The position numbers and the translations under genes are program-made. A stretch of 64,000 nucleotides of DNA from an uncultured virus (IMG/VR IMGVR_UViG_3300033149_005651). Lineage: Duplodnaviria; Heunggongvirae; Uroviricota; Caudoviricetes. Under the pieces are notes generated by a model. That model worked only from the letters and a program-made list of their open reading frames with translations. It did not search any database and was not told the DNA's origin. Location: IMG/VR virus record IMGVR_UViG_3300033149_005651; one strand, 5' to 3'. Positions 1 to 44,248 of the stretch are shown piece by piece. Every line of letters starts with the position of its first letter. Position 1 is the first letter of the stretch.

Positions 1-30
1 TTCTATGATTACTTGTTCGATGTCGGTCAT
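1..30 (-). CDS. Cassette-array protein, partial (N-terminus MTDIEQVIIE; runs off the left edge)
   Basis: Same N-terminal motif and ATGA stop/start overlap as neighbouring array members. Confidence 0.75.
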   Translation of the reverse strand, partial: MTDIEQVIIE

Positions 31-299
31 GTTTTGGCCCAGTCCTCGATGTTTTGGAGGGAGTTGGGGTGATTAAGGTCGATGGTGATTGTGTCCCAAG
101 TGTTCTGAGTGGTGACGGTGTGTTGGTTGAGTGTGATTTGGGTTCCGGTTATATTGATGATTTTGTCGTGGTTGATGCCGAGAGCAATGTTGTGGTCGAT
201 GTTGCTGAGACTGGCGGTTTGTTTGGAGAAAAATTCGTTTTCTTTTGCGAATCCATGGGGTTTAAGTAGTTCTGATAATACTTTTTCTATGTCTGTCAT
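27..299 (-). CDS. Cassette-array protein (MTDIE...DLxxPNSL..IEDWAK family)
   Basis: Conserved termini, variable core, ATGA overlaps with both neighbours. Confidence 0.9.
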   Translation of the reverse strand: MTDIEKVLSELLKPHGFAKENEFFSKQTASLSNIDHNIALGINHDKIINITGTQITLNQHTVTTQNTWDTITIDLNHPNSLQNIEDWAKT

Positions 300-511
300 G
301 ACTTGGCCCAGTCCTCGATGATTTGGAGGGAGTTGGGGTCACAGAGGTCAATGGTGGTGCTTTTCCAGTCGATGCCCCATTGGCATAGTTTAACTTGTTC
401 TCTTATGATGTGAATAGATCTGTTTCTGTGGTTGTTGACAATATGTAAGCGGTCTTTTTTGAACCCGTGGGGTTTGAGTAGTTCTTCTAATACTTTTTCT
501 ATGTCTGTCAT
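296..511 (-). CDS. Cassette-array protein
   Basis: MTDIEKVLEELLKPHGF...IDLCDPNSLQIIEDWAKS. Confidence 0.9.
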   Translation of the reverse strand: MTDIEKVLEELLKPHGFKKDRLHIVNNHRNRSIHIIREQVKLCQWGIDWKSTTIDLCDPNSLQIIEDWAKS

Positions 512-780
512 GACTTGGCCCAGTCCTCGATGATTCGGAGGGAATTGGGGTCACAGAGGTCGATGGTGATTTCGCTATCGATTGCTGCCATCATGAGGGC
601 ACATAGGTTGTGACGCATATCTGTGGTGGCGATGTTATATAGTGTGATTTTATCTTCTTGGATGCTGAGGATTTTGTTGGTGTTTAGGTAGAATTGGATT
701 GCGTCGGGGGGTATTTGGGGTTCTTTTATGAATCCGTGTGGTGTTAGTATTTCTATGATGACTTGTTCTATGTCGGTCAT
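508..780 (-). CDS. Cassette-array protein
   Basis: MTDIEQVIIEILTPHGF...IDLCDPNSLRIIEDWAKS. Confidence 0.9.
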   Translation of the reverse strand: MTDIEQVIIEILTPHGFIKEPQIPPDAIQFYLNTNKILSIQEDKITLYNIATTDMRHNLCALMMAAIDSEITIDLCDPNSLRIIEDWAKS

Positions 781-1082
781 GGGATTTGTATGGTGTTGGG
801 TTCTTTTACCCAGTCCTCGATGATCTGGATGGAGTTGGGATCGCAGAGATCAATAGCGATATCATTTCGGACCCATTGGGTTCGAGAATCGGTACGGTTC
901 CATTTGGTCAGTCTGATCTGATCCTCGAAGATACAAACAGTCTTATAACTAGTGGCGTTGCTGCTGGTATCTTGAAAATACGAAGTCAAGTAATTAGCGG
1001 TGAATCCGTGACATATATCGAAGCCGTATGGTTTTAATAGCTCTAATATTACTTGTTCAATCATAATTACTTGTTCAATCAT
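777..1082 (-). CDS. Cassette-array protein with an 18-bp tandem duplication of its start (MIEQVI x2)
   Basis: Conserved termini; duplicated ATGATTGAACAAGTAAT. Confidence 0.88.
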   Translation of the reverse strand: MIEQVIMIEQVILELLKPYGFDICHGFTANYLTSYFQDTSSNATSYKTVCIFEDQIRLTKWNRTDSRTQWVRNDIAIDLCDPNSIQIIEDWVKEPNTIQIP

Positions 1083-1348
1083 GTTGGGCCTTTTTCTTTT
1101 GCCCAGTCTTCAATGATTTGGATGGAGTTGGGGTCACAGAGATCAATAATGATTTCGTACCAATTTTGTTTGGATCGTGCGACGAAGCCCGGTTGGAGTT
1201 GGGTATCCCATTGTTTTAGTTCGACTTGGCTATTGGTAATATGAACTAGTTTACAGAGGTGATTGTTGTGATAATAATAACTATGTGTGTTGGTTGTGAA
1301 CCCGTGGGATTCTAGGAGTTCTTGGAGGACTTTTTCTATGTCTGTCAT
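1079..1348 (-). CDS. Cassette-array protein (start corrected to MTDIEKV at 1348)
   Basis: The track's N-terminal extension is the out-of-frame tail of the upstream cassette. Confidence 0.88.
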   Translation of the reverse strand: MTDIEKVLQELLESHGFTTNTHSYYYHNNHLCKLVHITNSQVELKQWDTQLQPGFVARSKQNWYEIIIDLCDPNSIQIIEDWAKEKGPT

Positions 1349-1629
1349 GGTTTGGCCCAGTCCTCGATAATCTTGAGGGAGTTGGGGTCGCAAAGGTCAG
1401 TAAGGATAATATCCCAATCTGTTTGACCCCAGCAGAGTAGTTTGACTTGGGTTTCGGTTATTTCGATGATTTTGTCGCCGTTGCTAATAAGACTATTGTC
1501 ATTTCTGTTGAAGGAGATATTGCTGAAGCTGGCGAAGTCTTTGTCGTAGCAGTTGTTGTAATTGTGTGCGGTACTTATGAATCCGTGGGGTTCTAGTAAT
1601 TGATGAATTACTTTTTCTATGTCTGTCAT
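1345..1629 (-). CDS. Cassette-array protein (internal start MTDIEKVIHQLLEPHGF)
   Basis: Conserved termini; core related to the 1698-1994 member. Confidence 0.88.
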   Translation of the reverse strand: MTDIEKVIHQLLEPHGFISTAHNYNNCYDKDFASFSNISFNRNDNSLISNGDKIIEITETQVKLLCWGQTDWDIILTDLCDPNSLKIIEDWAKP

Positions 1630-1701
1630 GACTTGGCCCAGTCCTCGATGATTTGGAGGGAGTTCTAGTAATTGATGAATTACTCGCTCAATGTCTGTCA
1701 T
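1626..1701 (-). pseudogene. 'Empty' cassette: conserved 5' end fused directly to conserved 3' end, core deleted
   Basis: ATGACAGACATTGAGCGAGTAATTCATCAATTACTAGAAC joined to TCCCTCCAAATCATCGAGGACTGGGCCAAGTCATGA. Confidence 0.8.
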
Positions 1702-1994
1702 GGTTTTGCCCAGTCCTCGATGGTTTGGAGGGAGTTGGGGTCGCAGAGGTCAGTGGAAGTGATTTCCCAATCTGCTTGTTCACGGTTCCAGTAGAGTAGT
1801 TTGACCTTGGTTTCGGTTATTTCGACGAATTTGTCGCTGTCGTCAAGGCCATTGCTATTAAAGCCATTGCTGAAGCTGACGAAGCTACTGTGACATGATC
1901 CGGTATAGACACCGTTGTAGTTGTTGACATATGTGTTTTTTATGAATCCATGAGGTTTTAACATTTCTTGGATTACTTGTTCGATGTCTGTCAT
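1698..1994 (-). CDS. Cassette-array protein (start corrected to 1994)
   Basis: MTDIEQVIQEMLKPHGF...TDLCDPNSLQTIEDWAKP. Confidence 0.88.
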   Translation of the reverse strand: MTDIEQVIQEMLKPHGFIKNTYVNNYNGVYTGSCHSSFVSFSNGFNSNGLDDSDKFVEITETKVKLLYWNREQADWEITSTDLCDPNSLQTIEDWAKP

Positions 1995-1996
1995 GA

Positions 1997-2221
1997 TTAG
2001 CAGCGGCCTGTGCCTCCGCATTTTGAGCAGAGGTCGGTTTGGTTGGTGATGGTTTTTACGCCGCTACCGCGTTGGATTACGCGGTAGCTAACACCTTGGT
2101 GGACTAAATGTGAAATGATATATTTAGCGGATGCGTTATCTGTGACTGTGCATTTGATGTTCTCTTCATTGCGTAGGCGATTGATGATGTTATCGCATGC
2201 TGTTTGGTTGATTCGTGCCAT
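1997..2221 (-). CDS. Hypothetical protein with a C-terminal CxxCGGxGxC motif; first gene of the array transcript
   Basis: ORF directly downstream of the promoter motif at 2242-2267. Confidence 0.75.
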   Translation of the reverse strand: MARINQTACDNIINRLRNEENIKCTVTDNASAKYIISHLVHQGVSYRVIQRGSGVKTITNQTDLCSKCGGTGRC

Positions 2222-2241
2222 GGGGTGATTCCTGTTTGAAT

Positions 2242-2267
2242 TGTTACAAGATACAATGGGATGTTAA
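2242..2267 (-). promoter_or_regulatory. Phage promoter motif TTAAC-N13-TTGTAACA
   Basis: One of 19 fixed-spacing copies, all upstream of minus-strand genes. Confidence 0.75.
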
Positions 2268-2540
2268 CACTCGTTTCGGTCTAAGAATTCTGTTAGTCCT
2301 CGGTGGTTGTGACTTTTTTGCCCAGTCCTCAATGAGGGTGAGGGAATTGGGGTCACAGAGATCAAATACTAACTCTTCCCATCGTGCATCGGTCCATCGA
2401 CAAAGCGCGACATGGTCTTCTATAATATAAAGAGATTTGTAACCATTTAAAAACCATCTGCCGGATGATTTTGGCGGTTTGATGTTGACAAATTCGTATG
2501 GTTCCAACAAAATCATTATCGCTTGTTCAATATCGGTCAT
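2244..2540 (-). CDS. Cassette-family protein (start corrected to 2540)
   Basis: MTDIEQAIMILLEPYEF...FDLCDPNSLTLIEDWAK. Confidence 0.85.
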   Translation of the reverse strand: MTDIEQAIMILLEPYEFVNIKPPKSSGRWFLNGYKSLYIIEDHVALCRWTDARWEELVFDLCDPNSLTLIEDWAKKSQPPRTNRILRPKRVLTSHCIL

Positions 2541-3115
2541 TATTGCACCCCACCGTGTTTTTCGATTTTGTAGTTTGATTCTTGTCGCCATGGGCCGGTG
2601 GATTTACATGTGATGTCTAAACAACGCAAGAGTTTTATCTGTCGTTGTCCTTCGCTCATTCTTATTTCAGAGATTGTGAAATATGGGCCGAATCCGCTGA
2701 TGTTCTGTACAAGATCACCGACACTGAAAGTGTCGTTCATTTTGTATGTATGTGTCTCTTCTTCTCTTTTGCGATCAAAGTCTTTGGTGATTACCATGAT
2801 GTCGAGCATGAATGTGATTTGATTGTTGTATGTTCCAAGGAAGACTGCCTCTTCTTTACTTTCATCGAACCATTCACCGGCCATCCACATATTTTCAACC
2901 CAAATTTCTTGGGAGAGGAGTTCGTTGACGAAGTTTTCGACGGTGAGTTTATCGAAGCCAGTAATCTGACAGATTTCTCCAATATCTCTGGTGGCCCAAC
3001 CCATCCATAAGACAATTATTGCTTGTCTGTGTAATTCACAAAGACCCGCCCATTCGGAGAAATTCTCGGCGAGTTCAACAGAGGTTTCGTATCTTTCTTG
3101 GTGTGTTTTATTCAT
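2540..3115 (-). CDS. Hypothetical protein
   Basis: 191-aa ORF coupled to both neighbours. Confidence 0.75.
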   Translation of the reverse strand: MNKTHQERYETSVELAENFSEWAGLCELHRQAIIVLWMGWATRDIGEICQITGFDKLTVENFVNELLSQEIWVENMWMAGEWFDESKEEAVFLGTYNNQITFMLDIMVITKDFDRKREEETHTYKMNDTFSVGDLVQNISGFGPYFTISEIRMSEGQRQIKLLRCLDITCKSTGPWRQESNYKIEKHGGVQ

Positions 3116-3375
3116 TTTGAAGTCGATAATATCCAGTTTCTGATGATATCAAAAGAGTTGGGGTCACAGAGATCGACGAAAGTTTTGTCCCAGCGTGATT
3201 CATTACCCCATTGACTTAATACGATTTGGCCGCCAGCAACGCGGATTAGTCTGTAGCGATAGTCGTTGTTGTCATGATAGTAGTTTGGCCAGCCGCTTGC
3301 GAGCTTGTTTGGTGAGAATCCATATGGCTTTAGGAATTCTAACATTACTTGTTCGATGTCTGTTGTGGGTTTCAT
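3112..3375 (-). CDS. Cassette-family protein (divergent)
   Basis: TTDIEQVMLEFLKPYGF...VDLCDPNSFDIIRNW. Confidence 0.85.
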   Translation of the reverse strand: MKPTTDIEQVMLEFLKPYGFSPNKLASGWPNYYHDNNDYRYRLIRVAGGQIVLSQWGNESRWDKTFVDLCDPNSFDIIRNWILSTSK

Positions 3376-4166
3376 TTGAAGGTTTCTTCAACATAGATTC
3401 TGATAGCTGTTTGAATCATTCGTTTGTCGACTTGGTTGAATTTGGTGGAGTCTAAAGTCACCTTGGGGAAGTTGCTTCTAAGTTTCACTTTTTTAGTAGA
3501 ATTAGTGACTCTTGTGATCGGGTAGAAGGTTTCGCCGTTTGTAATAATGCTGAAAGATGCTCCTTGATGTCCTATCCCGCCACATAGAAAGAATGGCTCT
3601 TTGTCTGGTTTAGACGGTGCTTCTAATATCACTGTCCGTCTGTTTAAAGAAACAATACTTTTGACACAGACTGTGCTGATTTGCGCACAGTTTGTTACAA
3701 ATGTCTCATTAATGACGAAGTCCTCGTCGCAGAATTCACTAGGAACAACGTATGCTTTTGATCCTAAGATACGTTCTACATTTTCTAACAAATCGTCAAG
3801 AGTTTTATCACCTACATCGGCATTTTCGTATCCACTACCGACGGTTTTTTGTTTGATGAGCCATCGCACTGAGAAGTGACGGGCTGATCTTTCGTTTATG
3901 GGGTTTGCACTATAGGATGGCATTCGATATTGAACGACAGCTTTCACGCTGATCCCGAGTTTCTTATTTATCGCTTTAAGTATGAGGAACGGTGGGCAAT
4001 CAGAAACCCCATTGTAGTAAGGGGTGCTCTTTTTACAGGAAACTCGATAGCCGTTTTCTGGTGTTCTTGCACCTTTCAGCGTTGGTTCTCCGAATTGGTT
4101 GCAGAAAGAGCGAAAATTGACGCGGATGTGTTCTCGGATTTCGGCGTCGTTTTTGAATTTTTCCAT
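3372..4166 (-). CDS. Hypothetical protein, possible distant paralog of 8654-9502 and 14340-15083
   Basis: Similar C-terminus (FF.....; D..MIQTAIRI). Confidence 0.75.
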   Translation of the reverse strand: MEKFKNDAEIREHIRVNFRSFCNQFGEPTLKGARTPENGYRVSCKKSTPYYNGVSDCPPFLILKAINKKLGISVKAVVQYRMPSYSANPINERSARHFSVRWLIKQKTVGSGYENADVGDKTLDDLLENVERILGSKAYVVPSEFCDEDFVINETFVTNCAQISTVCVKSIVSLNRRTVILEAPSKPDKEPFFLCGGIGHQGASFSIITNGETFYPITRVTNSTKKVKLRSNFPKVTLDSTKFNQVDKRMIQTAIRIYVEETFK

Positions 4167-4170: not shown

Positions 4171-4389
4171 TTATCGCTTTCGTAGGTGGGCGTTACGGGC
4201 TTGGCGGAGTGCTTCGGGGTTGTTTTGTGGGATCATGATGATGGTGGCGGCACAGCCTTTTGCAGCTGTTCCGACCATGAAGCCCATTTGGCGGCCCGTT
4301 TGCGAGCATTTGACGCACGTTGTCGTGCTGGGGAGGATTTCGAGGCGTTCGGTGGGGATTGGTTCGCCACATTTTTCGCAGTTTCGCAT
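4171..4389 (-). CDS. TraR/DksA-type C4 zinc-finger protein
   Basis: CEKCGEPIPTERLEILPSTTTCVKC; SD GGAG before the ATG at 4389. Confidence 0.85.
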   Translation of the reverse strand: MRNCEKCGEPIPTERLEILPSTTTCVKCSQTGRQMGFMVGTAAKGCAATIIMIPQNNPEALRQARNAHLRKR

Positions 4390-4426
4390 TGCCTTCTCTC
4401 CTGTGTGTGGGTGGTGCCTACACAGA

Positions 4427-4452
4427 TGTTGCAAGACGAATCCCCCCGTTAA
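4427..4452 (-). promoter_or_regulatory. Phage promoter motif TTAAC-N13-TTGCAACA
   Basis: Motif copy upstream of the TraR-like gene. Confidence 0.75.
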
Positions 4453-4503: not shown

Positions 4504-4887
4504 CTACTCTAAATCAATTTCGACCTCGCGGCAAATCCCCGGAGGGATTTCGGCGATAATCACGTAATCACCGTCCATGTCTTCTTCATACTCAAATTCA
4601 TCGTATTCTTCGATACGCTGGATTGCTTCTTCTCGCGTGCTATTCCGAACAGCAAAAACCTTGGTTTCTCCGAGTTTATTGATAATCAACCAGTCTTTTT
4701 TCATATCCTTAGCCGCTGTCAAATAGATCTCGACTTCTTCAACACACACATTGTGTGGATGGTCGTCCCAACCATCAACTGAAAATGTAGTCTCGCGGAC
4801 CCGACTCTCAGCTTCTTTTTGAGTCTCAGCGTCCTGAACTTCGACAGCTAAAGCAATAGTGAAATAAGCTACAACTCTATGGCTCAT
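4504..4887 (-). CDS. Hypothetical acidic protein
   Basis: 127-aa ORF with ATGA overlap. Confidence 0.7.
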   Translation of the reverse strand: MSHRVVAYFTIALAVEVQDAETQKEAESRVRETTFSVDGWDDHPHNVCVEEVEIYLTAAKDMKKDWLIINKLGETKVFAVRNSTREEAIQRIEEYDEFEYEEDMDGDYVIIAEIPPGICREVEIDLE

Positions 4888-5429
4888 GATAAGGCTTTAT
4901 CTTTCCAGTATCCGAAGGATTCACGCATTTGTGCTTCGAACTCTATGGGGGTCATATTGGTTTTGGTGCCGCCGCTGGAACCAAAATGATTATGCAATAA
5001 GGTGTCTGGATCGATTGGGGCTATTTCTCTTGTTGGGAAGCCGTTGATCGATATAATCTCCCAATCTTTATCGCTTTCGGCGTCATCGTCTTCTGTCAAT
5101 ATGTTATGACTGTAACAGATGATATGGACAAGTTGGGCGGGGATTTTACCGTTGCTACGATTCACCCGAATTGATTTTCGGGATTTTTCTCCATCGCGGC
5201 GCGGTTTGAATTCGCCGGTTAATTGGTCCCCATCACAGAGTGTCACTAAGCCGGTGAAGAACCCAGCGGGTGGTACCTCTATGATGATGACGCCTTCTCG
5301 GTATCCTGGTTTGATAATGGCGCTTGCTTGGACGAGAGCTAAGAGTTCTTTGTCGGTCCATGTGTGATGTGTGTAAGGGCTTTCGGGTGTTTGTCGCCGA
5401 ACGAATGAGTTGATGTGGATGTCGTTAAT
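4884..5429 (-). CDS. DUF3228-like protein with a probable AUU start
   Basis: Frame stays open upstream of the track start to ATT at 5429, 7 nt after AAGGAG; motifs FVRRQ, PGYREGV, WEIISI, GG...YW. Confidence 0.75.
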   Translation of the reverse strand: MNDIHINSFVRRQTPESPYTHHTWTDKELLALVQASAIIKPGYREGVIIIEVPPAGFFTGLVTLCDGDQLTGEFKPRRDGEKSRKSIRVNRSNGKIPAQLVHIICYSHNILTEDDDAESDKDWEIISINGFPTREIAPIDPDTLLHNHFGSSGGTKTNMTPIEFEAQMRESFGYWKDKALS

Positions 5430-8653: not shown

Positions 8654-9502
8654 CTATATAGTTAGGATTTTTATTGCTTGTTGCAATAACAACATATCAT
8701 TTGTGTTGATATTGATAAGCCGCAATGGATTATTGCCAGTAACGAAAAGGCAATCATGATCAGTTATCTTAATACACTTTGGGTTATGTTGAACCGCGAT
8801 CATGAATTCATTCGTGTCCTTGAGCAAAACGACGAAGGACCGATTATAGTAATCTATCACATCAAGAAAAAAATAAACATTCTTAATATTTGGATCATCA
8901 ACTATTTTGCTCACTCTTGCGAAATTTTCATCAATAGTGCAGAATCCTTCGCATATAGCTCTTTTAATAGTATTCGTCCATCGAATTGAGCCACCGATTC
9001 CTTTTTCCATGAGAACGGTTGATGGTTTTCGCACCCGCATGAGTTTTTCTGCTTTTGGGTCTCTTTTTCGTTTTTTCCTTTGTATCGTATCGCCCCGCAG
9101 ATCGTTTGCGATCGTTATTACCTTTTCAATGCTTGCTTCGTCTGATAGTCCTGGAACTGTTGCTTCGATATACTTGCCACTGCTTCTTCGCATATAAATA
9201 GCAAAGGTATAGTGTCCAGGATTTTTTGAGTTATCACATACCGATCCATCAAGTGGGTCGTCCGAACCAGGATGATAACGAACTTCGATACCAATACCGC
9301 GTTTGCTATTATACTGTCTCGCATAAACGGCGTATTTTTCGCCATTTTTTCCATTGACGATATTTGATTCTCGTATGGATGATGGTGCTGCGGTCATGTA
9401 ATATGCATTACGCAATAAATCAATAGTTCGCCAAACCCTATTATGGTCCGTATTAAAGACTAAGTTAAGAGAGCTTTGTGGGATTATTGTCGATTCAGAC
9501 AT
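8654..9502 (-). CDS. Hypothetical protein, paralog of 14340-15083
   Basis: Shared SKRG, RRSS(G)KYI and LF.(T/S)G..PL.L..I...DM motifs. Confidence 0.8.
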   Translation of the reverse strand: MSESTIIPQSSLNLVFNTDHNRVWRTIDLLRNAYYMTAAPSSIRESNIVNGKNGEKYAVYARQYNSKRGIGIEVRYHPGSDDPLDGSVCDNSKNPGHYTFAIYMRRSSGKYIEATVPGLSDEASIEKVITIANDLRGDTIQRKKRKRDPKAEKLMRVRKPSTVLMEKGIGGSIRWTNTIKRAICEGFCTIDENFARVSKIVDDPNIKNVYFFLDVIDYYNRSFVVLLKDTNEFMIAVQHNPKCIKITDHDCLFVTGNNPLRLININTNDMLLLQQAIKILTI

Positions 9503-9928: not shown

Positions 9929-10447
9929 CTAATAATATTTTGTTACAGAGGAATGGTCCGCATTAAATAAGAAGTATGGATCTTTAGTGTTTCTCGCCAA
10001 TCTTTTCCGTTTTGATACAGATCTACAATGCGATATAGCAAAAAAGGCATTGATATCTGTCGCCGCCAATTTCAAAAATCTGATGAAATTATCAGGGAAT
10101 CCTGGATCACAGAAAGCAAAAGTGAAGAAAACAATATCATATTGACGGCGAAAACCAATTGATTTTGTAGATAGTTCGATACGATCGTCAAAAATTGCGA
10201 AATTCGCATAATAAGCCCAAGGTTCTCCCCCACCAGCACTAACCGAACACATGTATTTAGTATCAGTAACACATGTGGGTGTGTGCGAAACATCACCTAT
10301 ATATGTACTATTTGGATTTTTTTCAATCCAAACCCATGTAGCACAATGAATCCGTCTGCGTCTGACGAATTCAACCTGAAAAGTATGCGAACGCTTATTA
10401 TCGAGAAGTATTTCATCGATTTCAGCAATTACTGCGTTTTTAACCAT
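9929..10447 (-). CDS. DP-motif family protein (FxFCDPxFP subgroup)
   Basis: FAFCDPGFPDNF; paralog of 18154-18666 and 20822-21187. Confidence 0.8.
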   Translation of the reverse strand: MVKNAVIAEIDEILLDNKRSHTFQVEFVRRRRIHCATWVWIEKNPNSTYIGDVSHTPTCVTDTKYMCSVSAGGGEPWAYYANFAIFDDRIELSTKSIGFRRQYDIVFFTFAFCDPGFPDNFIRFLKLAATDINAFFAISHCRSVSKRKRLARNTKDPYFLFNADHSSVTKYY

Positions 10448-10448: not shown

Positions 10449-11213
10449 CTACCAATTCTTATAATCTTCGGCTGTTTGTCGGAAAACCGCTATTCGATGT
10501 TTGTACCATATTTGATGAATTTTTTCTAATTCTCGCATGTGTTCAATCGTCTTAGTTGCCATTTTGTAAAGAAGGTTAGGATCGAATTTTGGATCCGCAA
10601 ATATGGGAATAGTAATGCTTGTTCCACCATCTTGTCCACGACCAATAACAAGTTCTCCAGACTTTAAACTGATACAAATATTCGCGTAACACTTCGAAGC
10701 GGAAAGAATCAATGCAGAATGGCTACTTTCCTTTTTTGCTTTAAATAAAAACCGAACATTCTTAAACCCATCATTATGCAATCTATCACGTAAATCGCTA
10801 AGAACAAGATTTTGGATGATATCTTCATATGCTCTCTTCGGTACATCAAGACCTTTAAGAGTTGTTAAGTGTTGTTTAAGCGATTCGACTGCATCCGCCC
10901 ATGTAGAGAATTTGGCTACGGGAGCATCTTGTTTCTTATACATCATCATCAAATGACCTAATGTATAAGAAATGTCTTCTGAATAAAATCCAACAATTTC
11001 ACCAGATTGTTTCTTATGGTGTTTTCTAGTAAGGAGCACGATCCGACTCAATGAATCATCCAAGTCCAGGATGAATTCTACTTGTGCGCCGAGTTTATAA
11101 TTCGAAGCACGTATAATGCACCTATTGTGGACAAAATACCCATAGCCCAAGCCTTTTAGCCAAACCTTCAGATCAGAAACATCATTATACTGTCGGTAAT
11201 TAATGGGAATCAT
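10449..11213 (-). CDS. Two-domain DP-motif protein, paralog of 21175-21978
   Basis: LKVWLK, QNLVLSDLRDRL, KAKKE, DPKFDP shared. Confidence 0.82.
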   Translation of the reverse strand: MIPINYRQYNDVSDLKVWLKGLGYGYFVHNRCIIRASNYKLGAQVEFILDLDDSLSRIVLLTRKHHKKQSGEIVGFYSEDISYTLGHLMMMYKKQDAPVAKFSTWADAVESLKQHLTTLKGLDVPKRAYEDIIQNLVLSDLRDRLHNDGFKNVRFLFKAKKESSHSALILSASKCYANICISLKSGELVIGRGQDGGTSITIPIFADPKFDPNLLYKMATKTIEHMRELEKIHQIWYKHRIAVFRQTAEDYKNW

Positions 11214-14339: not shown

Positions 14340-15083
14340 TCATAAAGCCTTTACCCATACTTTTATCGCTTTATTCACAAAAGCCATGTCTTCAATACTG
14401 ATCATAGAAAGATCAAGTGGATACGTTCCAGACATAAACAATTGATTGCTGTTAACAATCTTGCAAACTCTACCACGGGTTAATGCGATCAAAAACTTTA
14501 CACCATCGTTGGTTATAACATAGACTTCGCGATCACGAATATCTAAGCATCGCACAAAGAAAAATGTATCAGCATCTGGTTTAGCAACTTCACTCAGCAA
14601 GATTGTCCCAGTTGACGAAATTTGACAGACACCCATCGTCTGCGCAGTCAAGAGTATACATGGTCTCGTAATCGCGTAGTGGTCTCCTACTTCAATCCCT
14701 GCGCGCGTTGCTGTCCGCCATTTAGGAATTTTCCTATTTTCTTTACTTTTAGGTGGGTCGCCAGAAAGTTGTTTTGATTCTGTGATTGCTTCTTCAAGTG
14801 TGTCGTACAACGAATACCAGATATACTTAGAACTACGCCGAACCAGTACAACAACCGTAGCATTCTTAAGGTGGGTGTTGAGATAATCGTATACGATCGA
14901 AACACCACGTTTAGAATCAAAGCCAGATATAGAAAATTGACCATCAGCCGTTTGATGATCAAGACGTGGTCGATAACCAGCGTCCTTCAGAATTTTCCGG
15001 ACATCATCAATATCAAGCATCGTAAACCTCATGCAAAACGTAAGTATTCCACATATTGGAGTAACAAACAATATGGGACCCAC
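14340..15083 (-). CDS. Hypothetical protein, paralog of 8654-9502
   Basis: Shared motifs; true start probably MLDIDD. Confidence 0.78.
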   Translation of the reverse strand: MGPILFVTPICGILTFCMRFTMLDIDDVRKILKDAGYRPRLDHQTADGQFSISGFDSKRGVSIVYDYLNTHLKNATVVVLVRRSSKYIWYSLYDTLEEAITESKQLSGDPPKSKENRKIPKWRTATRAGIEVGDHYAITRPCILLTAQTMGVCQISSTGTILLSEVAKPDADTFFFVRCLDIRDREVYVITNDGVKFLIALTRGRVCKIVNSNQLFMSGTYPLDLSMISIEDMAFVNKAIKVWVKAL

Positions 15084-17100: not shown

Positions 17101-17610
17101 TTATTTCTCTAGCTTCTCTAGATAGGCATAAACTTCTGGGTGCCATTCATCATGTAAAGCGTAAAACGCATCGGACAAAGTATCCGAAAGAGGCATGATC
17201 GTATTCTCCCAATCATCCCCGATCTCGAAATCACCTTCATCTTCATCCACATGTGCCATCATTTGACAGCATAGATCGAGGACTTTCTTCGATGCAGGCC
17301 CCATTTCTTCGAGAATATCCGGGAGCCAATCCCAGGATTTGACAGCATAGCCGTTGCTGACCCACTGAGAAAATCCACCATTGTCAACCTGTTGATTCAA
17401 CTTGCCAAGAACACAAGCGACGCGTTCAGCTTGGTTATAACATCCATTGTTCAACATACCCTTGAATGACCACCGACGTTTGTTATGAGCAATCGCACTG
17501 ATTTTGTCAGCTCTACGAAGTTGATCGAGTTCCTTACAATGTTTCTGCCAACGATCATAAGGACCATCCATCAGTTGCTGCCATCGGCAGTTATCACCAC
17601 GAAGCGTCAT
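17101..17610 (-). CDS. DMP19/DUF4375-family protein (putative DNA mimic)
   Basis: QQVDNGGFSQWVSN motif; acidic C-terminal half. Confidence 0.7.
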   Translation of the reverse strand: MTLRGDNCRWQQLMDGPYDRWQKHCKELDQLRRADKISAIAHNKRRWSFKGMLNNGCYNQAERVACVLGKLNQQVDNGGFSQWVSNGYAVKSWDWLPDILEEMGPASKKVLDLCCQMMAHVDEDEGDFEIGDDWENTIMPLSDTLSDAFYALHDEWHPEVYAYLEKLEK

Positions 17611-18153: not shown

Positions 18154-18666
18154 TTATGATTCTCTGGGGGTATCTCGAAGGTATCGACGGTATTTTTCCC
18201 ATCTTCTATAATAGGCAAGTTGAAAACAATAATGCGCATTAAGTGTAGCCGCATCTAAAAAATCTAAAAAATTAATCGGGAATCTAGGGTCACAAAACTC
18301 AAAATTATGCGATTTAAACTCAGTGCGATTGGACACAATTCCTCTAATCGTTGTGGCAGAAGCCACGATCCGTAAGTCTTCGATCACAAATCCGCCAAAA
18401 TAAGACCAAGCACCACCAGGACAACTAGCAACACTACAACGATATTCGAACACCTCTTTGGTCCGTGAAATCAACTGCCAAACATTTCGATTATTTTTCT
18501 GAGGTCGACCAAATGACCCACCCATCCCCATCCAACCCTCAGAAGAAACAGATAATTGTCTTTTACCATCATACCATTCTGTATCTGAATTATGAAACGA
18601 TGATGACGACCCAAACGCGAATATATCATTTAATTCTGCTGTAACTATTGATTGGATTGATTGCAT
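18154..18666 (-). CDS. DP-motif family protein (FxFCDPxFP subgroup)
   Basis: FEFCDPRFPINF; SVASCPGGAWSY matches SVSAGGGEPWAY of 9929-10447. Confidence 0.8.
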   Translation of the reverse strand: MQSIQSIVTAELNDIFAFGSSSSFHNSDTEWYDGKRQLSVSSEGWMGMGGSFGRPQKNNRNVWQLISRTKEVFEYRCSVASCPGGAWSYFGGFVIEDLRIVASATTIRGIVSNRTEFKSHNFEFCDPRFPINFLDFLDAATLNAHYCFQLAYYRRWEKYRRYLRDTPRES

Positions 18667-18764: not shown

Positions 18765-19337
18765 CTACATGAGTGGAATATCGATAGTCAACATTCTAAA
18801 TATGGTCCCCCATAACCGTTCAAGTATCCATGGTGATTGTTGATCACTCTTTATATATGTGAGCACTGATTGGTAAAAATCAATCGGTTTGCTCTCCAAC
18901 CGTTTCTGACTCACCATAAACTGAGCCCCATGTACAAAATGATATCTATCAAATGTCCGTCCGAGCATAGACCGGCACACAGCGTCGACCTTTAGCCCTC
19001 TATGATGGGGGGACCCATTCCCTTCACACGCAAGTTTACGACCAATCTCGATATAATCGATTTTGTGTTTGTGTTTATCAATGTTATCGATATCACTGAT
19101 GAAGTTTTTAGCGTGAGGGAATGGATTCCCCTGGCAGAATACCGTGTGACCATCTAATTGACCGTAATTGTTAACAATATGCTGGATGTATGTATCCGCT
19201 TCTCTGCCAATATTTTTCAGATGAATACTTCCCGCTATCGGTTTATCACTTTTATCGTAAACAACGACATCATGACTGGCTTTAAGTTGTTCAGCCCATC
19301 GCACATCTTCCTCATATTTCGCGATCACGATTATCAT
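18765..19337 (-). CDS. DUF3431-family protein (glycosyltransferase-like)
   Basis: VIAKYEED, NIGREADTY, TVFCQGNPFPH, GAQF, ERLW. Confidence 0.8.
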   Translation of the reverse strand: MIIVIAKYEEDVRWAEQLKASHDVVVYDKSDKPIAGSIHLKNIGREADTYIQHIVNNYGQLDGHTVFCQGNPFPHAKNFISDIDNIDKHKHKIDYIEIGRKLACEGNGSPHHRGLKVDAVCRSMLGRTFDRYHFVHGAQFMVSQKRLESKPIDFYQSVLTYIKSDQQSPWILERLWGTIFRMLTIDIPLM

Positions 19338-20725
19338 TCATTCACTTTCATCCTGATCACATTGCCCCAACTTGGTCCCTCTGTTTGATTTTCTGGGGTT
19401 GTGATCACGCAAATGTAGGGGAATTTCTTATCTTCCGACCAATTTGCATGACCATCAGTGAGCATCACCGTACAATCGGGCACCAAACCATTGTCACACA
19501 ACCACTCCATCGGTGCAGCCATGTCTGTGCCTCCACGTCCTTTGATGGTCAATTTCTTCCAATCGCCACGACGGTAGGGGTCGTAGCCTTGGAATTGTGC
19601 ATCCCATTGCAGGATTGTGACTTTAGCACGGCTGCTAATCGATTCGATTTCGCCAAAGAATTGTTCTAATTCTTTTTTACCGACCGAACCGCTCGTATCG
19701 ATGATCACACAAACGGTTGCAGCAGCATGGTGGCTGACTCCAGCCATGCCGAACATACGACGACGACGGTTTCGTCGTGAGTAAGTTTTCCGTTGATTCC
19801 CAACATGCTTACCAAGATAAGATCTGAGTAAATCACGCCACCGAACTACTGGCTTAGCTAGCTCTTTGATCGCAGCTTCAAGATGACCGGGGCAATGTCC
19901 CTGACATTTCTCGGTCGCTTGATCGACCAAATCCTTGATCAGTTGACGAGCTTCATCAGCAGATACATCCGATTGGTTCCAGACACTGTGGTCATCGATA
20001 ACCTTTCCGCTAACACCGCCGAAGCTGTATTCGCCAGTAGTTTCTTGCCCACATTGCCCACATTTTTCACCTTCACCTTCGCCACCGCCGTCTCCGTCTT
20101 CACCTTCTTTACCTTTTCCCTTCCCCTTTCCCTTCCCGCCGCCGCCGCCTTTTTCTTTGAGTGGTTTACCACATTGTCCGCAGCATTTGCCTTTTTTGGA
20201 CTGGTTCTTTTCAAGTCTTTCGTAAAAATACTCGGTAGTTTCATCATTTGGCCAGTCTTCTGGGATCCAGACGATATTACCTTTCAGCGGTACGATCAAC
20301 TCGCTCGTTGTCGGTTCTTGGTATCCGATCCGGGGCTTGTTGCGGCGACCGTTGACGCACATATCAGCGGCAATATTCCAGGCTTCTGGGTTTCGATGAT
20401 CACTGCGTGTGCAATGACATCGGACAATGTGCTCGATTTCATGCTGGATGACCGCGAACAATTCCTTGATTGTGAGCGTGTCAACAAATGGGGGATAATA
20501 CATGCACTGGATATCACCGCCGTTGACGATTCGAACCCCCATTGTTCTCCTTGATTCCGGCATCCAAGGCATAGCCGACGGAATCCAAATCATGCCCATC
20601 GCAACGTGCCCATACCAGGGTTCGCGTGTCATAAGCCTGCAGCGTGCATTCATCAGTCTTTCAGACTGTTCTTGCGTTGTCTTGATCTTAGCGTTTCCCA
20701 AGACCACCATATTATTCGTGCTCAA
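19334..20725 (-). CDS. DUF2201-type metallopeptidase-like plus vWA domain protein
   Basis: HEIEH, WNIAAD, DTSGS MIDAS motif, GRGGTD, LTDG. Confidence 0.88.
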   Translation of the reverse strand: MSTNNMVVLGNAKIKTTQEQSERLMNARCRLMTREPWYGHVAMGMIWIPSAMPWMPESRRTMGVRIVNGGDIQCMYYPPFVDTLTIKELFAVIQHEIEHIVRCHCTRSDHRNPEAWNIAADMCVNGRRNKPRIGYQEPTTSELIVPLKGNIVWIPEDWPNDETTEYFYERLEKNQSKKGKCCGQCGKPLKEKGGGGGKGKGKGKGKEGEDGDGGGEGEGEKCGQCGQETTGEYSFGGVSGKVIDDHSVWNQSDVSADEARQLIKDLVDQATEKCQGHCPGHLEAAIKELAKPVVRWRDLLRSYLGKHVGNQRKTYSRRNRRRRMFGMAGVSHHAAATVCVIIDTSGSVGKKELEQFFGEIESISSRAKVTILQWDAQFQGYDPYRRGDWKKLTIKGRGGTDMAAPMEWLCDNGLVPDCTVMLTDGHANWSEDKKFPYICVITTPENQTEGPSWGNVIRMKVNE

Positions 20726-20821: not shown

Positions 20822-21187
20822 TTAAATATCGTGCGATTGCTCTAACTCAACAAACACATTGTCTGGAAACGCTGGATCACAAAACAAGAAGCCAAAAATT
20901 TTAGAACGGCCCCGTCCTTCCCGCTTGACATCGCGATAGACCATAGTAAGCTCAACCCTATCGGCGAGGATTGTTAAACTACCTAAATAGCGTGTGCGTG
21001 AGTGTATATGTGGATCTACAAAACCTGATCTAGTGTTATAGCAATCATAAGAAGCAATCCCATTAATAGTAGCAAATGCTTCTTGCTTCTTAAGAGTTCT
21101 AATGAATGATAATCCCGATTTCATACTATCGAATTTTTCTTCGAAGTCTGCTTTAACTGCTTGTGCTAAGTTCATCATGGGCACCAT
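20822..21187 (-). CDS. DP-motif family protein (FxFCDPxFP subgroup)
   Basis: FLFCDPAFPDNVF. Confidence 0.78.
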   Translation of the reverse strand: MVPMMNLAQAVKADFEEKFDSMKSGLSFIRTLKKQEAFATINGIASYDCYNTRSGFVDPHIHSRTRYLGSLTILADRVELTMVYRDVKREGRGRSKIFGFLFCDPAFPDNVFVELEQSHDI

Positions 21188-21978
21188 GAATTTTTGAAGT
21201 CATTCTTAACAATATCATACGCTTCTGTTCGTTTTGCATTGAAGGCTTTGGATTCTATCTCAAGGGCTTGCATTGTTTCGATGGCTCTAAGACATATGTT
21301 GAATAACACTTCTGGATCAAATTTCGGATCTTCAAAGTTTGGGATACCGATTTTTAAGCCGTATGATCCTTCAAAACTTATTGTTAATTGGCCTCGTTTG
21401 AGACCAACATGTATAACACAATAGACGCTTGAAACGCATAATAAAAGATATGTCTTTGTATTTTCTTTTTTAGCCTTCGACAAAAATCTAATATTACCGA
21501 AACCAGCCTTTCGCAAACGATCCTTCAGATCACTCATCACGATATTTTGCAGCAAGTCCCTATGAACTTTTTTAGGTACCGGATCACCATCGAGAGTATC
21601 GAGATAATAACCGACTTTTTCAACTACCGCAGGCCAATCATCTAAAACCAATCTAGTTTTCCCAAATTCAACAGACCATGTCTTATTGCATTGGGTGATG
21701 GCTATAGTGCGATGATACACACTCTTCATTTCACCAGACCATTGTTCTACAGCTTTACGAACAAGGAACGTGATAAGATTTATTGATCCTTCTGATGTTT
21801 CAAATATGATTTCTACACCACGTTTCATGTTTTTGCCGGACATTGTCCTAGGCCATGAGGATGATCCGGCATAGGTAAACGTGGTGTCACCACCTTGAAA
21901 ATGACCAATACCAAACTGCTTTAACCAAACTTTGAGTGCACGAACATCATATTCACTATTGCACACTTGTTTAATCAT
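21175..21978 (-). CDS. Two-domain DP-motif protein, paralog of 10449-11213
   Basis: LKVWLK, QNIVMSDLKDRL, EDPKFDP. Confidence 0.82.
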   Translation of the reverse strand: MIKQVCNSEYDVRALKVWLKQFGIGHFQGGDTTFTYAGSSSWPRTMSGKNMKRGVEIIFETSEGSINLITFLVRKAVEQWSGEMKSVYHRTIAITQCNKTWSVEFGKTRLVLDDWPAVVEKVGYYLDTLDGDPVPKKVHRDLLQNIVMSDLKDRLRKAGFGNIRFLSKAKKENTKTYLLLCVSSVYCVIHVGLKRGQLTISFEGSYGLKIGIPNFEDPKFDPEVLFNICLRAIETMQALEIESKAFNAKRTEAYDIVKNDFKNSWCP

Positions 21979-24038: not shown

Positions 24039-25406
24039 TTAATCATCAGTATCGTCGCCCGTTGTCCCCCACGAAACCCTCGACAGAGCACTTTGCAAAT
24101 CCGGGCGTTCGGTGAGTCGATCGATGAAATTCTTCTTCGTTGATCCAGCCCGTGTGTTGAACTTGGCGATCATCGTCGCCAGTCGGGGATTGGAGATCAC
24201 CGCAACACGAGCCTTTTCCTGATGGTCGCTGGTGTTTCCGCCGCTGACCAAGGCTCGGCAGAATGCCACGACAACATCCTTGTCATGAGCGTGCTTCACC
24301 ATGAAGGAGGCAAAATCCAAACAAACCTCAGCGGTTTTATCCTCGTCGATATTGCCCTTGGCGAATGACACCAGACCCCACATTAGGCCGGTCAATTGGT
24401 TCCGATTCAAACCTTTCAGTTTCTCCTCGAAAACCGCCACACCACGAGACATCAACTCACGAGGCTTGACAGGACAAGAATGTCGGCTGAATGAACGACT
24501 CAGTTCCCGACCGATCAAACCAGCAAGCACTTCCTCACGAGCATGATCCTGGAATCCATTCTGTGCACAAGAATCGTAGACCCGCACAACTTGATCCCAA
24601 GATCGTCGTGACGGCTGGACTGAGAAGCCCAATTCGCCGGGGATATCACCATCCAGATGCTTGACATTCTGAGAGGCAAATTCGATCACGTCCGCCGCAT
24701 GGCTACCATGCACATCAGACATCCAGTTGACCCATTCCTCTAGCGTTGTCGCACCACCAGAAAGTGTCAGATGACAGAAACGATCCAGAAAAGCTGGATC
24801 ATTGAAACCGGACACCATGTAGCCTTCGGTGAAATTACCGGCAGCCACGACACACCACCCTGGCGGGAGGACATACTGACCGACGCGGCGATCGAGAACC
24901 AACTGGAAGATGGCCTGCAAAACGTCATCTTGGGCTCGGTTGACTTCGTCGATGAACAGGATGCCATTTTGGAATCGCGGCTGCAAGGTTTGCAACTTGG
25001 CGTAATACTGCCGTTCTGTCTCTAGGTCAGCTTGTTCGAGTGCTTTGCGGATTTTATCCGCAATCGCATCTTGACTGAGCCCTTCGACCGATATCCCGAT
25101 GGTCCCTGCTAGTTGGGCAGTGATTTCTTCGCGAGTCAGGTCACCAACAGGCATGTCAGCAGGCGGCAGATAATGCGTCCGAAAGTCATCCTTCAGACCG
25201 AGATTCACACCTGTTTCTGGCAAGCCACGCACATCGGATGCTTCTAACTGTGAGCATCGGAGATCGAGGAATCCCCAACCGCTCTCTCCCGCCAGTTGAT
25301 GAACAAGACTCGATTTTCCGAGTCCTCGGTGCCCCCAAATGAATGGAGTAATATTTGCCGCTCGACAAATCTTGATCGCTTCCGTGATTGCACTAATTGT
25401 TGCCAT
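24039..25406 (-). CDS. MoxR-type (AAA_5) ATPase
   Basis: Walker A GHRGLGKS, Walker B LFIDEVNRA, AAGN, DRF, SRRSW. Confidence 0.9.
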   Translation of the reverse strand: MATISAITEAIKICRAANITPFIWGHRGLGKSSLVHQLAGESGWGFLDLRCSQLEASDVRGLPETGVNLGLKDDFRTHYLPPADMPVGDLTREEITAQLAGTIGISVEGLSQDAIADKIRKALEQADLETERQYYAKLQTLQPRFQNGILFIDEVNRAQDDVLQAIFQLVLDRRVGQYVLPPGWCVVAAGNFTEGYMVSGFNDPAFLDRFCHLTLSGGATTLEEWVNWMSDVHGSHAADVIEFASQNVKHLDGDIPGELGFSVQPSRRSWDQVVRVYDSCAQNGFQDHAREEVLAGLIGRELSRSFSRHSCPVKPRELMSRGVAVFEEKLKGLNRNQLTGLMWGLVSFAKGNIDEDKTAEVCLDFASFMVKHAHDKDVVVAFCRALVSGGNTSDHQEKARVAVISNPRLATMIAKFNTRAGSTKKNFIDRLTERPDLQSALSRVSWGTTGDDTDD

Positions 25407-35614: not shown

Positions 35615-36214
35615 TCAAGAGCCAACCACCCCATTTTTTATCAAGAATTGTGCATAATCTTTACATTGTTGCATAACTTGATCTATAGGGCGATCATCGT
35701 GTATCTTTAGATGTAGCAATGTTTGCCAGCCGTTGTTGGTGAAAATTTGTAATTTTCGGCTGATGCTACCAATGAAATCAAAACTCACTCGGAGCATTTT
35801 GCCATTGTGAAACAGGTGTGGCATTCCTTCCGCTTCTTGCCAGTCTTTTATTTCAGATTCGGGTTCGAGACTAGCACCACCATCGACTTTTTTCTTGAGA
35901 TTACGATCGGATTCAGATTTGGGTTCAGATTTGGGTTGCAATAATCGAAGTTCTTTCTCCGATCCTGAGCCACGAATTTCAACAAGTCCTCGTCTTTTAG
36001 CACTGTTCATAACCCTGCTGATAAGACGATATTTCCCATACTTAATCTGAAAACGGAGTTCTTGTTTACAGTCTGATCTTATCGTATACCGATAAGTTCG
36101 TGTGGCAACTTCTGGGGATATATGATCAGCCAGAAATATAAATTCTCTGAAATGGTGCCATTCGTTATTTTCTAGGATTTCGAGCACCGATTCGTGGCTT
36201 ATCATCGGTTTCAT
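35615..36214 (-). CDS. Hypothetical protein, possible winged helix
   Basis: MNSAKRRGLVEIRG. Confidence 0.65.
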   Translation of the reverse strand: MKPMISHESVLEILENNEWHHFREFIFLADHISPEVATRTYRYTIRSDCKQELRFQIKYGKYRLISRVMNSAKRRGLVEIRGSGSEKELRLLQPKSEPKSESDRNLKKKVDGGASLEPESEIKDWQEAEGMPHLFHNGKMLRVSFDFIGSISRKLQIFTNNGWQTLLHLKIHDDRPIDQVMQQCKDYAQFLIKNGVVGS

Positions 36215-37197
36215 TTACTCTTTTTTCCTTTCTTTACCCATTGTTTGCATTGACCAATCAATGGTTTCATGCGTTCGTTGATTTCATCCCATTCATTCAA
36301 GAATCTTTGGGCTTCGATCAAGTCAAGGGAAAGGTCGTTGACTGTTTTGATTGGTTTTCCCTTCTTGCCTATTGTTAGTAACCTAAGATGCTTCTTGAAC
36401 AAATTAAACATTTTGGTCTTGTTCAAAGAAGTTCGCGGTGCTTTAGGCAACGCAGCCATTTCGGCCAAATTGCTACTCCATTGGGCAAGGATCGTATGCA
36501 TAGATCGCTCTGATCCAGCAGCTTTAATTTCTCTTACCATATCACTAACTCTATCGGCAGACATTTTATATGTCCCCGCTAGACGGGCAGCTTCATAAAC
36601 TACATCCGTGACCACGGCGATAAGATTTAAAGCATTGAGGCTCGAAATAGACAGATGGTCGGTGTTGATATTGGCCAATTCGAGCTTTTCACCCAATTTC
36701 TTAGCTCTGATCATGTATTGAGCTTTTTGAGGCTGTATCGAGCACGAATTAGCAAGCTCAGTAAGAGAAGTCCCGTAAGTCGTATGCATATAATAAATAT
36801 GCTCAAATATTTCTTCATCGGTTTGCCCTTTACCCTCAAGAGCATTATCAGACCTAGTGATGATTTCGGCGATTTCATCGCCGCATTCGATGATATATCC
36901 GCCAACGGTTTTGAGTTTATTCTTTTTAGCCGCATCGATCCGATGGTTACCAGCTAAAACAAAATACTTAACGGTTCCGACGTTACGCACGGTAACACCC
37001 GGAACCGATCGCCCCGAAGCAAGAGAGACAGCGATCTTTCCAGAATGCACTGTATCCATTTGGCATTCGACCCGTGCATTATTTCTTTTCGATTTCTCGA
37101 TATCGATCATGCTTAGGCTAATGCGATCCTGCCATTTGAATTTAGCATTGAATCTGATGAATATATCTTCGCGAACTTTATCATGTACCCACGCCAT
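36211..37197 (-). CDS. ParB/Srx-like N-terminal domain plus HTH protein
   Basis: YFVLAGNHRIDAAK; SLTELANSCSIQPQKA. Confidence 0.75.
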   Translation of the reverse strand: MAWVHDKVREDIFIRFNAKFKWQDRISLSMIDIEKSKRNNARVECQMDTVHSGKIAVSLASGRSVPGVTVRNVGTVKYFVLAGNHRIDAAKKNKLKTVGGYIIECGDEIAEIITRSDNALEGKGQTDEEIFEHIYYMHTTYGTSLTELANSCSIQPQKAQYMIRAKKLGEKLELANINTDHLSISSLNALNLIAVVTDVVYEAARLAGTYKMSADRVSDMVREIKAAGSERSMHTILAQWSSNLAEMAALPKAPRTSLNKTKMFNLFKKHLRLLTIGKKGKPIKTVNDLSLDLIEAQRFLNEWDEINERMKPLIGQCKQWVKKGKKSK

Positions 37198-39338: not shown

Positions 39339-39422
39339 GATTTTTCCTTCCATTCTATGATTTGTTATCTATAATTATTATTACAAGACCAACCTATGGG
39401 TTAAATACAGACAAAATACAGC

Positions 39423-42023: not shown

Positions 42024-42037
42024 CTATTACTCCCTAA

Positions 42038-44135: not shown

Positions 44136-44163
44136 CACCTTACATAGAGCTAGAACTGAGAAG

Positions 44164-44244: not shown

Positions 44245-44248
44245 CGAG

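Follow-up and report, generated by a model that had tools for sequence, protein, structure and literature searches.

The first 3375 positions of a 64,000-nucleotide stretch of DNA from an uncultured virus (IMG/VR record IMGVR_UViG_3300033149_005651; the whole stretch at this length is referred to below as the window) carry an array of small paralogous genes. An earlier note on this DNA, made from the sequence alone, regarded them as cassettes with constant ends and hypervariable cores whose junctions act as recombination handles. On the basis of current results, the array is probably a lineage-specific tandem gene family of a new small protein, which evolved by duplication, insertions and deletions (indels) and occasional gene conversion, that is, in an ordinary way and with no special shuffling system. 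The family is previously undescribed, and the module that contains it is rich in ORFans, atypical in codon usage and part of a large uncultured phage-like element. Of the earlier description, the array itself, the end motifs and the ATGA links stood, whereas the unalignable cores, the uniform junctions and the promoter did not; of its interpretation, a tandem family with one scaffold and some exchange could be retained, but not a dedicated recombination-handle system.

Nine complete genes, one partial gene and one remnant of the family were identified in 1-3375, all on the minus strand, and no further member could be found beyond 1-3387 when a 37-member profile was compared with the six-frame translation of the 64 kilobases (kb). 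The complete genes are A (27-299, 90 amino acids (aa), hmmsearch E 2.8e-29), B (296-511, 71 aa, the shortest member), C (508-780, 90 aa), D (777-1082, 101 aa, with a longer C-terminal tail), E (1079-1348, 89 aa, also with a long tail), F (1345-1629, 94 aa from its own ATG), G (1698-1994, 98 aa), H (2244-2540, 98 aa, divergent and with a long C-terminal tail) and I (3112-3375, 87 aa, the most divergent, running from MKPTTDIE... to ...IIRNWILSTSK). Only the start of the tenth gene (30..1, MTDIEQVIIE...) is present, since it runs off the left edge, and its ATG overlaps the stop codon of A in the form ATGA. Such a cut copy had been described before, as had ATGA linkage in 1-1994, for which seven stop/start overlaps could now be located from the gene coordinates (partial/A, A/B, B/C, C/D, D/E, E/F and remnant/G); these overlaps would make the array a translationally coupled operon. 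Predicted isoelectric points (pI) were 4.4-5.4 for six of the nine members and 6.5-6.9 for the other three, and the family proteins are predicted to be small and soluble (71-101 aa), mostly acidic to neutral.

Both end motifs are real but not free of exceptions. The N-terminal motif, MTDIE.V..E.L.P.GF, is modified in D (which lacks MTD), in I (which starts MKPTTDIE) and in H (EPYEF), and the C-terminal motif, DLCDPNS...IEDW, in A (DLNHPNS) and in I (which ends IRNW). The cores, which had been considered largely unalignable, contain a 17-residue block (K..I.I.e.QV.L..W) and a second W that could be aligned in all nine window members and also in sets of 26 and 37 family members. Alignment failed only for the residues that follow GF and for the loop that connects strand 4 with strand 5, and the mean column identity of the nine members was 40%.

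Fold-based constraint and DNA-level homogenisation can be separated by a comparison of synonymous sites. In a codon alignment of the nine genes, we distinguished an N block (17 codons), a middle block (17 codons), a C block (22 codons) and the remaining, variable part. Over the 36 pairs, mean synonymous divergence (pS) was 0.68 in the N block, 0.72 in the variable part, 0.66 in the middle block and 0.57 in the C block, and the corresponding values of nonsynonymous divergence (pN) were 0.17, 0.55, 0.43 and 0.23. Identical degenerate residues were encoded by the same codon in fractions of 0.555 (N), 0.583 (variable), 0.541 (middle) and 0.679 (C); the difference between the N block and the core was -0.001 (95% confidence interval (CI) -0.19 to 0.18; bootstrap over columns). 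Identity at codon positions 1, 2 and 3 was 0.70, 0.90 and 0.58 in the N block, 0.43, 0.40 and 0.43 in the variable part, 0.47, 0.62 and 0.48 in the middle block, and 0.72, 0.78 and 0.60 in the C block. Thus, the third codon position was the least conserved in both end blocks, which is a signature of selection on the protein. The earlier note had proposed this comparison of junctions with cores as a check on its own idea; synonymous sites turned out to be as diverged as those of the cores in the N block and nearly so in the C block. Judging from these codon patterns, the constant ends appear to be kept by purifying selection on the protein and not by homogenisation of the DNA.

Structure prediction suggested what this selection may act on. 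The AlphaFold2 model of B, obtained with a 37-sequence alignment, had a mean predicted local distance difference test score (pLDDT) of 91.8 and a predicted template modelling score (pTM) of 0.77, and consisted of a helix (residues 3-15), five strands and a second helix (61-70). The model of G (pLDDT 83.3) had the same order of elements, and its extra residues (insert 21-38) formed a low-confidence stretch between strands 1 and 2, with pLDDT below 50 at 24-27 and 30-34. The N-terminal segment was a confident helix in both models (pLDDT 87-94, blocks 1-20). In these models, each constant end corresponds to a terminal helix with its cap (P-H/Y-G-F or D-L-C-D-P-N-S), strands 3-4 and the start of the following loop make up the conserved middle block, and the variable parts are loops. 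Together with the second W, the alignable part of the core covers strands 3-5. The two predictions agree, in line with the earlier proposal of one scaffold with variable parts. With the terminal helices as a frame and the loops free to vary, there would be a structural reason for constant ends and a variable core that involves no DNA-level process. Each gene would then encode one compact domain, in which an antiparallel sheet of five strands is preceded by one helix and followed by another, and both helices with their caps probably pack against one face of the sheet. The variable core would comprise the length-variable loop after strand 1, the loop between strands 4 and 5, and alternate strand positions that presumably face outward.

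The conserved N-terminus could also be considered as a targeting signal, similar to the capsid targeting sequence of T-even phages, by which the proteins are packaged in the virion and injected. T-even phages are known to have polymorphic loci of small proteins with a common leader, and the window members share an N-terminus of about 17 residues with I-x-E-like motifs. However, this segment is predicted in both models to be helix 3-15 of the folded domain (at high pLDDT), a leader model gives no reason why conservation at the C-terminus should equal or exceed that at the N-terminus, and no capsid or protease genes were found in the window. We therefore consider a targeting signal to be very improbable, even though a published tandem family of large-phage paralogs offers a precedent: in phiKZ, the head/inner-body proteins gp92-97/153/162/163 share a C-terminal domain (PF12699) and are partly injected (bioRxiv 10.1101/2025.11.23.690004). 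Like the array members, the phiKZ proteins are multi-copy paralogs in which one terminal region is conserved, and they are individually dispensable; they differ in that they are virion components and show no sequence relationship to the array, as PF12699 was not among its Pfam matches.

Relatives of the family also bear on how the end motifs are maintained. A profile search of a 5.8-billion-cluster collection gave 25 proteins, and a profile search among 1.84 billion gave 31 representatives, eight of which were the window's own and one of which was spurious, leaving 30 genuine ones. All non-window members came from Joint Genome Institute (JGI) metagenome contigs. The spurious one, a leucine-rich-repeat protein of 3460 aa (P0038), matched a 16-residue motif only and was excluded from the family. 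Ten proteins (P0027-P0029 and P0031-P0037) were distant relatives, seven of them starting with V and five flagged for an amino-acid make-up unlike that of the alignment; on at least two of their contigs, members occur in pairs. They keep three motifs, E..LELL.PFGF, V.L..W and DLCDPGSL..IE.WA, and exchange of DNA inside a single array cannot explain end motifs that are conserved over such a distance. A maximum-likelihood tree, built for 37 proteins from 83 of 174 columns, did not unite the nine window members in one clade (7 changes; 106 of 500 shuffles were equally low). F and G were sisters (support 98/88), A grouped with P0011 and P0025 (97/78), and four more supported groups joined proteins whose longest contigs differ. 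This tree pattern seems to fit old, separately maintained paralogs and not concerted evolution. Moreover, exact window proteins occurred on 5-7 contigs and the flanking proteins on 4-7, which indicates that the alleles are stable across assemblies.

By these counts, the distribution of the family is very narrow. In searches for the DNA of relatives, no match to 1-3400 was obtained by blastn in GenBank phages, no array-family relative and no relative of the flanking gene 3372-4166 in IMG/VR, no relative in metagenome contigs by profile or degenerate DNA pattern, and no family relative in species-representative prokaryote genomes. Longer or fused forms were not found either, which is weak evidence. 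On the window's own contig of 120,583 base pairs (bp), no family protein is recorded outside the window. Exact copies of H and of the unrelated open reading frame (ORF) X1, which is described below, occurred on contigs of up to 89,896 bp; the longest contig of P0005 is also 89,896 bp, and the first ten residues of P0005 are those of the cut gene at the left edge (MTDIEQVIIE). The simplest reading would be that the array continues past the end of the window's contig, with P0005, P0010, P0012, P0013, P0015, P0018, P0020, P0021 and P0025 as further units, which would give an array of about 19 members in all.

The DNA between the genes is less uniform than the near-identical junction of about 70 bp that had been reported. 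Such a junction was found at three of the eight places, upstream of A, B and F, where exact runs of 45-58 nucleotides (nt) spanning stop and start are held in common and 116-nt copies are 91% identical. It was not found at the other five, since the remaining pairs had at most 23 nt of exact identity and their copies were 60-80% identical. Junction R was counted among these five low-identity junctions, and its 58-nt run with F, which belongs to a 72-nt duplication, was left out.

This duplication is one of two features that were absent from the earlier note. Tandem Repeats Finder identified a 72-nt tandem duplication of the G|F junction at 1590-1736 (2.0 copies, 89% matches), and the second copy is an 'empty' unit (remnant R, 1630-1701, minus strand), in which 13 N-terminal codons are followed, in a different frame, by the final ~33 nt of a C-terminal block. 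The unit reads in frame into F, so that F can be extended to an ORF of 118 aa from the remnant ATG at 1701. The join has a 3-nt microhomology, AAC, which is present in both partners and lies inside the blocks; this suggests an illegitimate, microhomology-type duplication rather than an exchange between long homologies. The other feature is a perfect 18-nt tandem duplication at the 5' end of D (1048-1082; 1.9 copies, 100% matches).

Signs of exchange do exist in the array, but they extend beyond the junctions. For the pair F/G, pS was 0.10 in the middle block compared with 0.59 in the N block and 0.50 in the C block, and for A/F it was 0.15 in the middle block. For A/B, the ends had pS of 0.28 and 0.26 and the middle block 0.83. 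In a GENECONV-like permutation analysis of 153 polymorphic sites, one of the 36 pairs passed Bonferroni correction, namely a B-C run in the C block (p 0.025). The junction was also rejected as a unit, since how similar two C blocks are showed no correlation with how similar the N blocks next to them are (r -0.06, permutation p 0.61), and no correlation could be observed between the two ends of one gene either (r 0.03). Thus, the part of the earlier interpretation that concerns recombination can be kept to the extent of some exchange within the array, as seen in the junction runs, the 72-nt copy, the B-C run and the F/G middle block.

Short assembled sequences from other samples provided some information on variation in populations. 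Logan contigs covering the array came from two DNA runs as pieces of 151-402 nt; of the words sampled from the stretch, one run contained a share of 0.19 and the other of 0.15, and no RNA run containing the stretch was listed. A variant contig from sediment run X2 had in-frame insertions of 21 nt after position 708 and of 15 nt after position 1014, both inside variable loops. Contigs of run X2 at 460, 1313 and 1399 matched a junction and then diverged, for which other paralogs or strains are possible sources. No joints were seen in the contigs of the two runs, a weak result at piece lengths of only 151-402 nt. The array has probably grown and changed by duplication (as in F/G), by small slippage or microhomology duplications and by in-frame loop indels; where paralogs have stayed alike, in cores as well as ends, gene conversion or unequal exchange would have been added from time to time.

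Some of these features have a sloppy appearance (the empty junction unit, the duplicated start of D and the long tails of D, E and H), which might point to repeat DNA that is selfish or in decay and has lost selection on its reading frames. This explanation is scarcely credible, because all nine frames are open and have conserved motifs, pN in the end blocks is far below pS, the predicted structures are confident, and relatives are conserved across distant lineages.

If the junctions were dedicated to recombination, enzymes or DNA structures of known cassette systems might be recognized. Pfam scans covered 99 window ORFs, 15 at E ≤ 0.1 and 84 at E ≤ 1e-4, and no match to an integrase, recombinase or reverse transcriptase could be found among them. 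With respect to integrons, this set contained no tyrosine recombinase and the five junctions examined contained no attC-like folded repeat; with respect to diversity-generating retroelements, no reverse transcriptase was present, and the repeats found were the paralogs themselves. The five junction strands folded as single-stranded DNA were no more stable than shuffled sequences (z -0.73 to +1.19), and an Rfam scan detected transfer RNAs (tRNAs) only. Transcription of the array had been assigned to a promoter at 2242-2267. The promoter-like site at 2267-2240 is a weak match to the consensus (9 of 12), and the region has no excess of such sites (15 versus 11.0 +/- 3.3 in shuffles), which does not favor this assignment. 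We also noticed that the IEDW glutamate is GAG in seven of eight members and that E5 is GAA in nine of nine, which places GAGGA 12 nt before the next ATG. A Shine-Dalgarno reading of this motif was not relied on, since the motif was found in only 32 of the 87 other minus-strand ORFs, mostly at a spacing of 5-7 nt, and also because the whole array is rich in C-ending codons.

Taken to its full extent, the handle hypothesis holds that the coding junctions are selected for recombination, so that whole cassettes are swapped, gained and lost at high frequency and produce a fast-changing panel of effectors. The three junctions with long exact runs across stop and start and 91%-identical copies, the duplicated empty junction, the significant C-terminal B-C run and the weak correlation of core and end similarities could all be counted in its favor, and so could the fact that every unit is in frame and ATGA-linked, by which exchange at junctions would leave genes intact. 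Nevertheless, several findings go against it. Synonymous sites of the junctions are about as diverged as those of the cores, with third codon positions the least conserved, and five of the eight junctions share at most 23 nt with any other. The 72-nt duplication was joined at a 3-nt microhomology within the blocks, which indicates illegitimate and not homologous exchange, and the clearest common patch (F/G) lies in the core and not in the ends. In addition, the motifs are kept in distant relatives, identical alleles occur on 5-7 contigs, neither a recombinase nor a hairpin was found, and the Logan contigs have no joints (weak evidence, as noted). On balance, selected recombination handles are unlikely.

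The nearest published analogue of the handle idea is provided by PeSLs, intergenic cassettes of a promoter and a stem-loop. Modular shuffling mediated by PeSLs in T4-type phages was reportedly described by Comeau et al. in 2014 (PMC4122927). Recombination at PeSLs and the formation of mini-circles have been documented in these phages (Arbiol et al. 2010, PMC2839356). In both cases, small non-essential genes have short repeats on either side, through which deletions, duplications and circles could arise. The differences are considerable: the array has ATGA overlaps and no intergenic DNA, no excess of promoter sites and no stable stem-loop, and its repeated sequence is coding and diverged at synonymous sites. 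A further possibility is an in-frame, translation-coupled 'accordion' of host-directed binder genes, in which the helix-coding ends double as homology for unequal exchange and populations could rapidly gain, lose and mosaic members while all frames stay intact. We consider this doubtful; if it were true, the array would be a coding-sequence counterpart of PeSL shuffling, and the nine metagenome proteins mentioned above (P0005 and others) would be units of the array of about 19 members.

An ordinary tandem family has published precedents. Tandem paralog arrays have been published for phages G and 121Q (2017, PMC5646251), and phage G contains about 35 zinc-ribbon copies (Iyer et al. 2021, PMC7824862). 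These arrays are attributed to tandem duplication, and like the present one they line up many paralogs of a single small protein head to tail within the genome of a large phage. The present array differs in its protein family, in having at least 10 copies visible and in the much greater divergence of its members (mean column identity of 40%), compared with 'very similar genes' there.

It should be noted that several observations weigh against an ordinary tandem gene family in a phage-like element, or limit what can be concluded from it. First, the similarities of different segments were near uncorrelated over the 351 pairs of 27 near members (core-N 0.13, core-C 0.09, N-C -0.01); saturation under constraint could be enough to produce this, but it could also mean stronger mosaicism than expected from simple birth-and-death. 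Second, the same-codon fraction of the C block exceeded that of the core by 0.12, although not significantly (95% CI -0.02 to 0.26; column bootstrap). This small excess may come from the strong preference of the array for C-ending codons, as the frequency of third-position C was 0.53 in the C block, 0.42 in the family and 0.16 in the 81 other minus-strand ORFs. Together with the exact runs of 45-58 nt, the excess possibly leaves room for junction-biased exchange. Third, no structural phage gene was identified in the 64-kb window by Pfam or PHROGs. The designation as a phage therefore depends on nine tRNA predictions, PHROG hits and the density of ORFans, and the element is best called phage-like. 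Finally, the fold searches gave generic matches only and no lead to function. Foldseek found no match in the PDB at E ≤ 0.001; VIA-align, applied to 48,161 chains, gave a best Z of 7.2 (Mediator Med17C), which is within the background of this tool (a typical best of 7-8 for unmatched models); and the best BFVD match (E 1.1e-3, template modelling (TM) score 0.65) belonged to uncharacterised small proteins of large phages.

Other searches were consistent with a family that has no clear fold homologue in the PDB, BFVD or the ESM Atlas. Neither Pfam nor PHROGs has a family for the paralogs, and the profile gave nothing below E 0.17 against PDB sequences. In the VIA-align comparison, 26 chains reached Z ≥ 5, including the C-terminal domain of T4 MotA (6.6-6.8), frataxin/CyaY (6.4) and, at 5.0-6.0, type III chaperones, YbjN/AmyR, the TriTu immunity protein (5.4) and PsiB, all of these scores being within background. 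The order of elements in two-layer helix/sheet/helix domains (frataxin/CyaY, type III secretion system chaperones, YbjN/AmyR, the MotA C-terminal domain and Med17C) is like that of the models, with 60-70 of 71 residues aligned at a root-mean-square deviation of 1.9-3.0, Z of 5.4-7.2 (background) and identity of 4-14%. No functional residues are common to these domains and the array proteins, and the resemblance is one of fold only.

The ESM Atlas returned clusters of DUF4304 at TM scores of 0.68-0.70 over 69 residues (all feature scores ≤0.82), and DUF4304 resembles the family in having an N-terminal helix that ends in a GF motif. Membership in DUF4304 (PF14137), for which we know of no function, was rejected, as one of the 37 members matched it at 16.9 bits, below the cut-off of 23.2 (E 0.004-0.006). 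The Atlas clusters and this weak Pfam match, together with the TriTu immunity protein in the VIA-align results, could suggest that the array is of the immunity or antitoxin type, as in polymorphic toxin systems, with each member neutralising a different toxin or superinfecting competitor. Immunity genes of polymorphic toxin systems form tandem arrays, and the array proteins are small, soluble, single-domain paralogs in tandem. However, a single sub-threshold member out of 37 and a Z of 5.4 within background are set against it, as are the lack of a recognisable toxin gene among 15 neighbouring ORFs scanned with Pfam and the failure to find fused or longer forms (again weak evidence); an immunity function appears improbable. 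As for the tandem family itself, our guess from the modelled scaffold-plus-loop anatomy and the genomic setting is that its products may be small binding proteins, diversified with respect to their targets in host or phage and produced at the same time in the infected cell. An anti-defence or host-takeover role, as had been suggested, would be possible.

The analysis thus adds a new, very narrowly distributed small-protein family with a confident predicted fold and with no Pfam or PHROG model, and the array can be added to the tandem multigene families that are increasingly known from large uncultured phages. Such families are likely places for host-interaction or counter-defence proteins. It also calls for caution, in that constant ends with a variable core can be fully explained by a fold with two terminal helices as a frame. 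No new mechanism follows from the array unless population data reveal junction-specific exchange.

Two unrelated minus-strand ORFs lie among the family genes. ORF X1 (1997-2221, 74 aa, pI 9.2) interrupts the array, has no Pfam or PHROG family and did not match the array-family profile; it ends in CSKCGGTGRC, a tail that resembles the CxxCxGxG zinc-finger motif. ORF X2 (2540-3115, 191 aa), which is acidic, is located between H and I. The array forms a compositional island from 1 to ~5500 with its neighbours 1997-2221, 2540-3115, 3372-4166, 4171-4434 and 4884-5246. Third-position C is 31-50% in the island versus 16% in the 81 other minus-strand ORFs, and the plus-strand GC skew is +0.2 to +0.35 over the tandem part; the codon composition of H resembles that of the rest of the window (third-position C 0.22). 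Separate acquisition of this module, or a difference in its expression, could account for the island. A Logan contig of run X1 diverges from the window at ~5410.

The rest of the window consists almost entirely of minus-strand ORFans. PHROG matches were obtained for a DksA-like protein, a ParB-like protein, an ATPase, a methyltransferase, an epimerase, a kinase, phrog_1314 (labelled as an HNH endonuclease) and a few proteins of unknown function. ARAGORN predicted nine tRNAs at 42037-47493 on the minus strand, six of which were confirmed by Rfam; the prediction at 42037-42115, which is not among the confirmed ones, has a four-base anticodon (tcat) and no amino acid. On the plus strand, an ORF of more than 2316 aa (57051-63998) is cut by the right edge of the window; Pfam gave no clear family for it, and it is internally repetitive, with alternative-frame ORFs that are 40-72% identical to each other.

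Several other minus-strand genes may be mentioned. The 169-aa protein at 17101-17610 has a DMP19-like domain (PF14300, E 2.3e-13), a family known as a DNA-mimic protein. At 19334-20725 and 24039-25406, a protein with a DUF2201 metallopeptidase and a VWA-like domain (Pfam E 3e-25 and 1e-21; PHROG label HNH endonuclease, phrog_1314) occurs ~3 kb from an AAA ATPase (phrog_1297, E 5e-51). A 204-aa protein with a WGR domain (38739-39353; PF05406, E 3e-15) adjoins a 506-aa ORFan and the ParB-like gene at 36211-37197. Dispersed paralogs were also observed: 10449-11213 is paired with 21175-21978 (34.5% identity over 255 aa, E 3e-43), 8654-9502 with 14340-15083, and 9929-10447 with 18154-18666.

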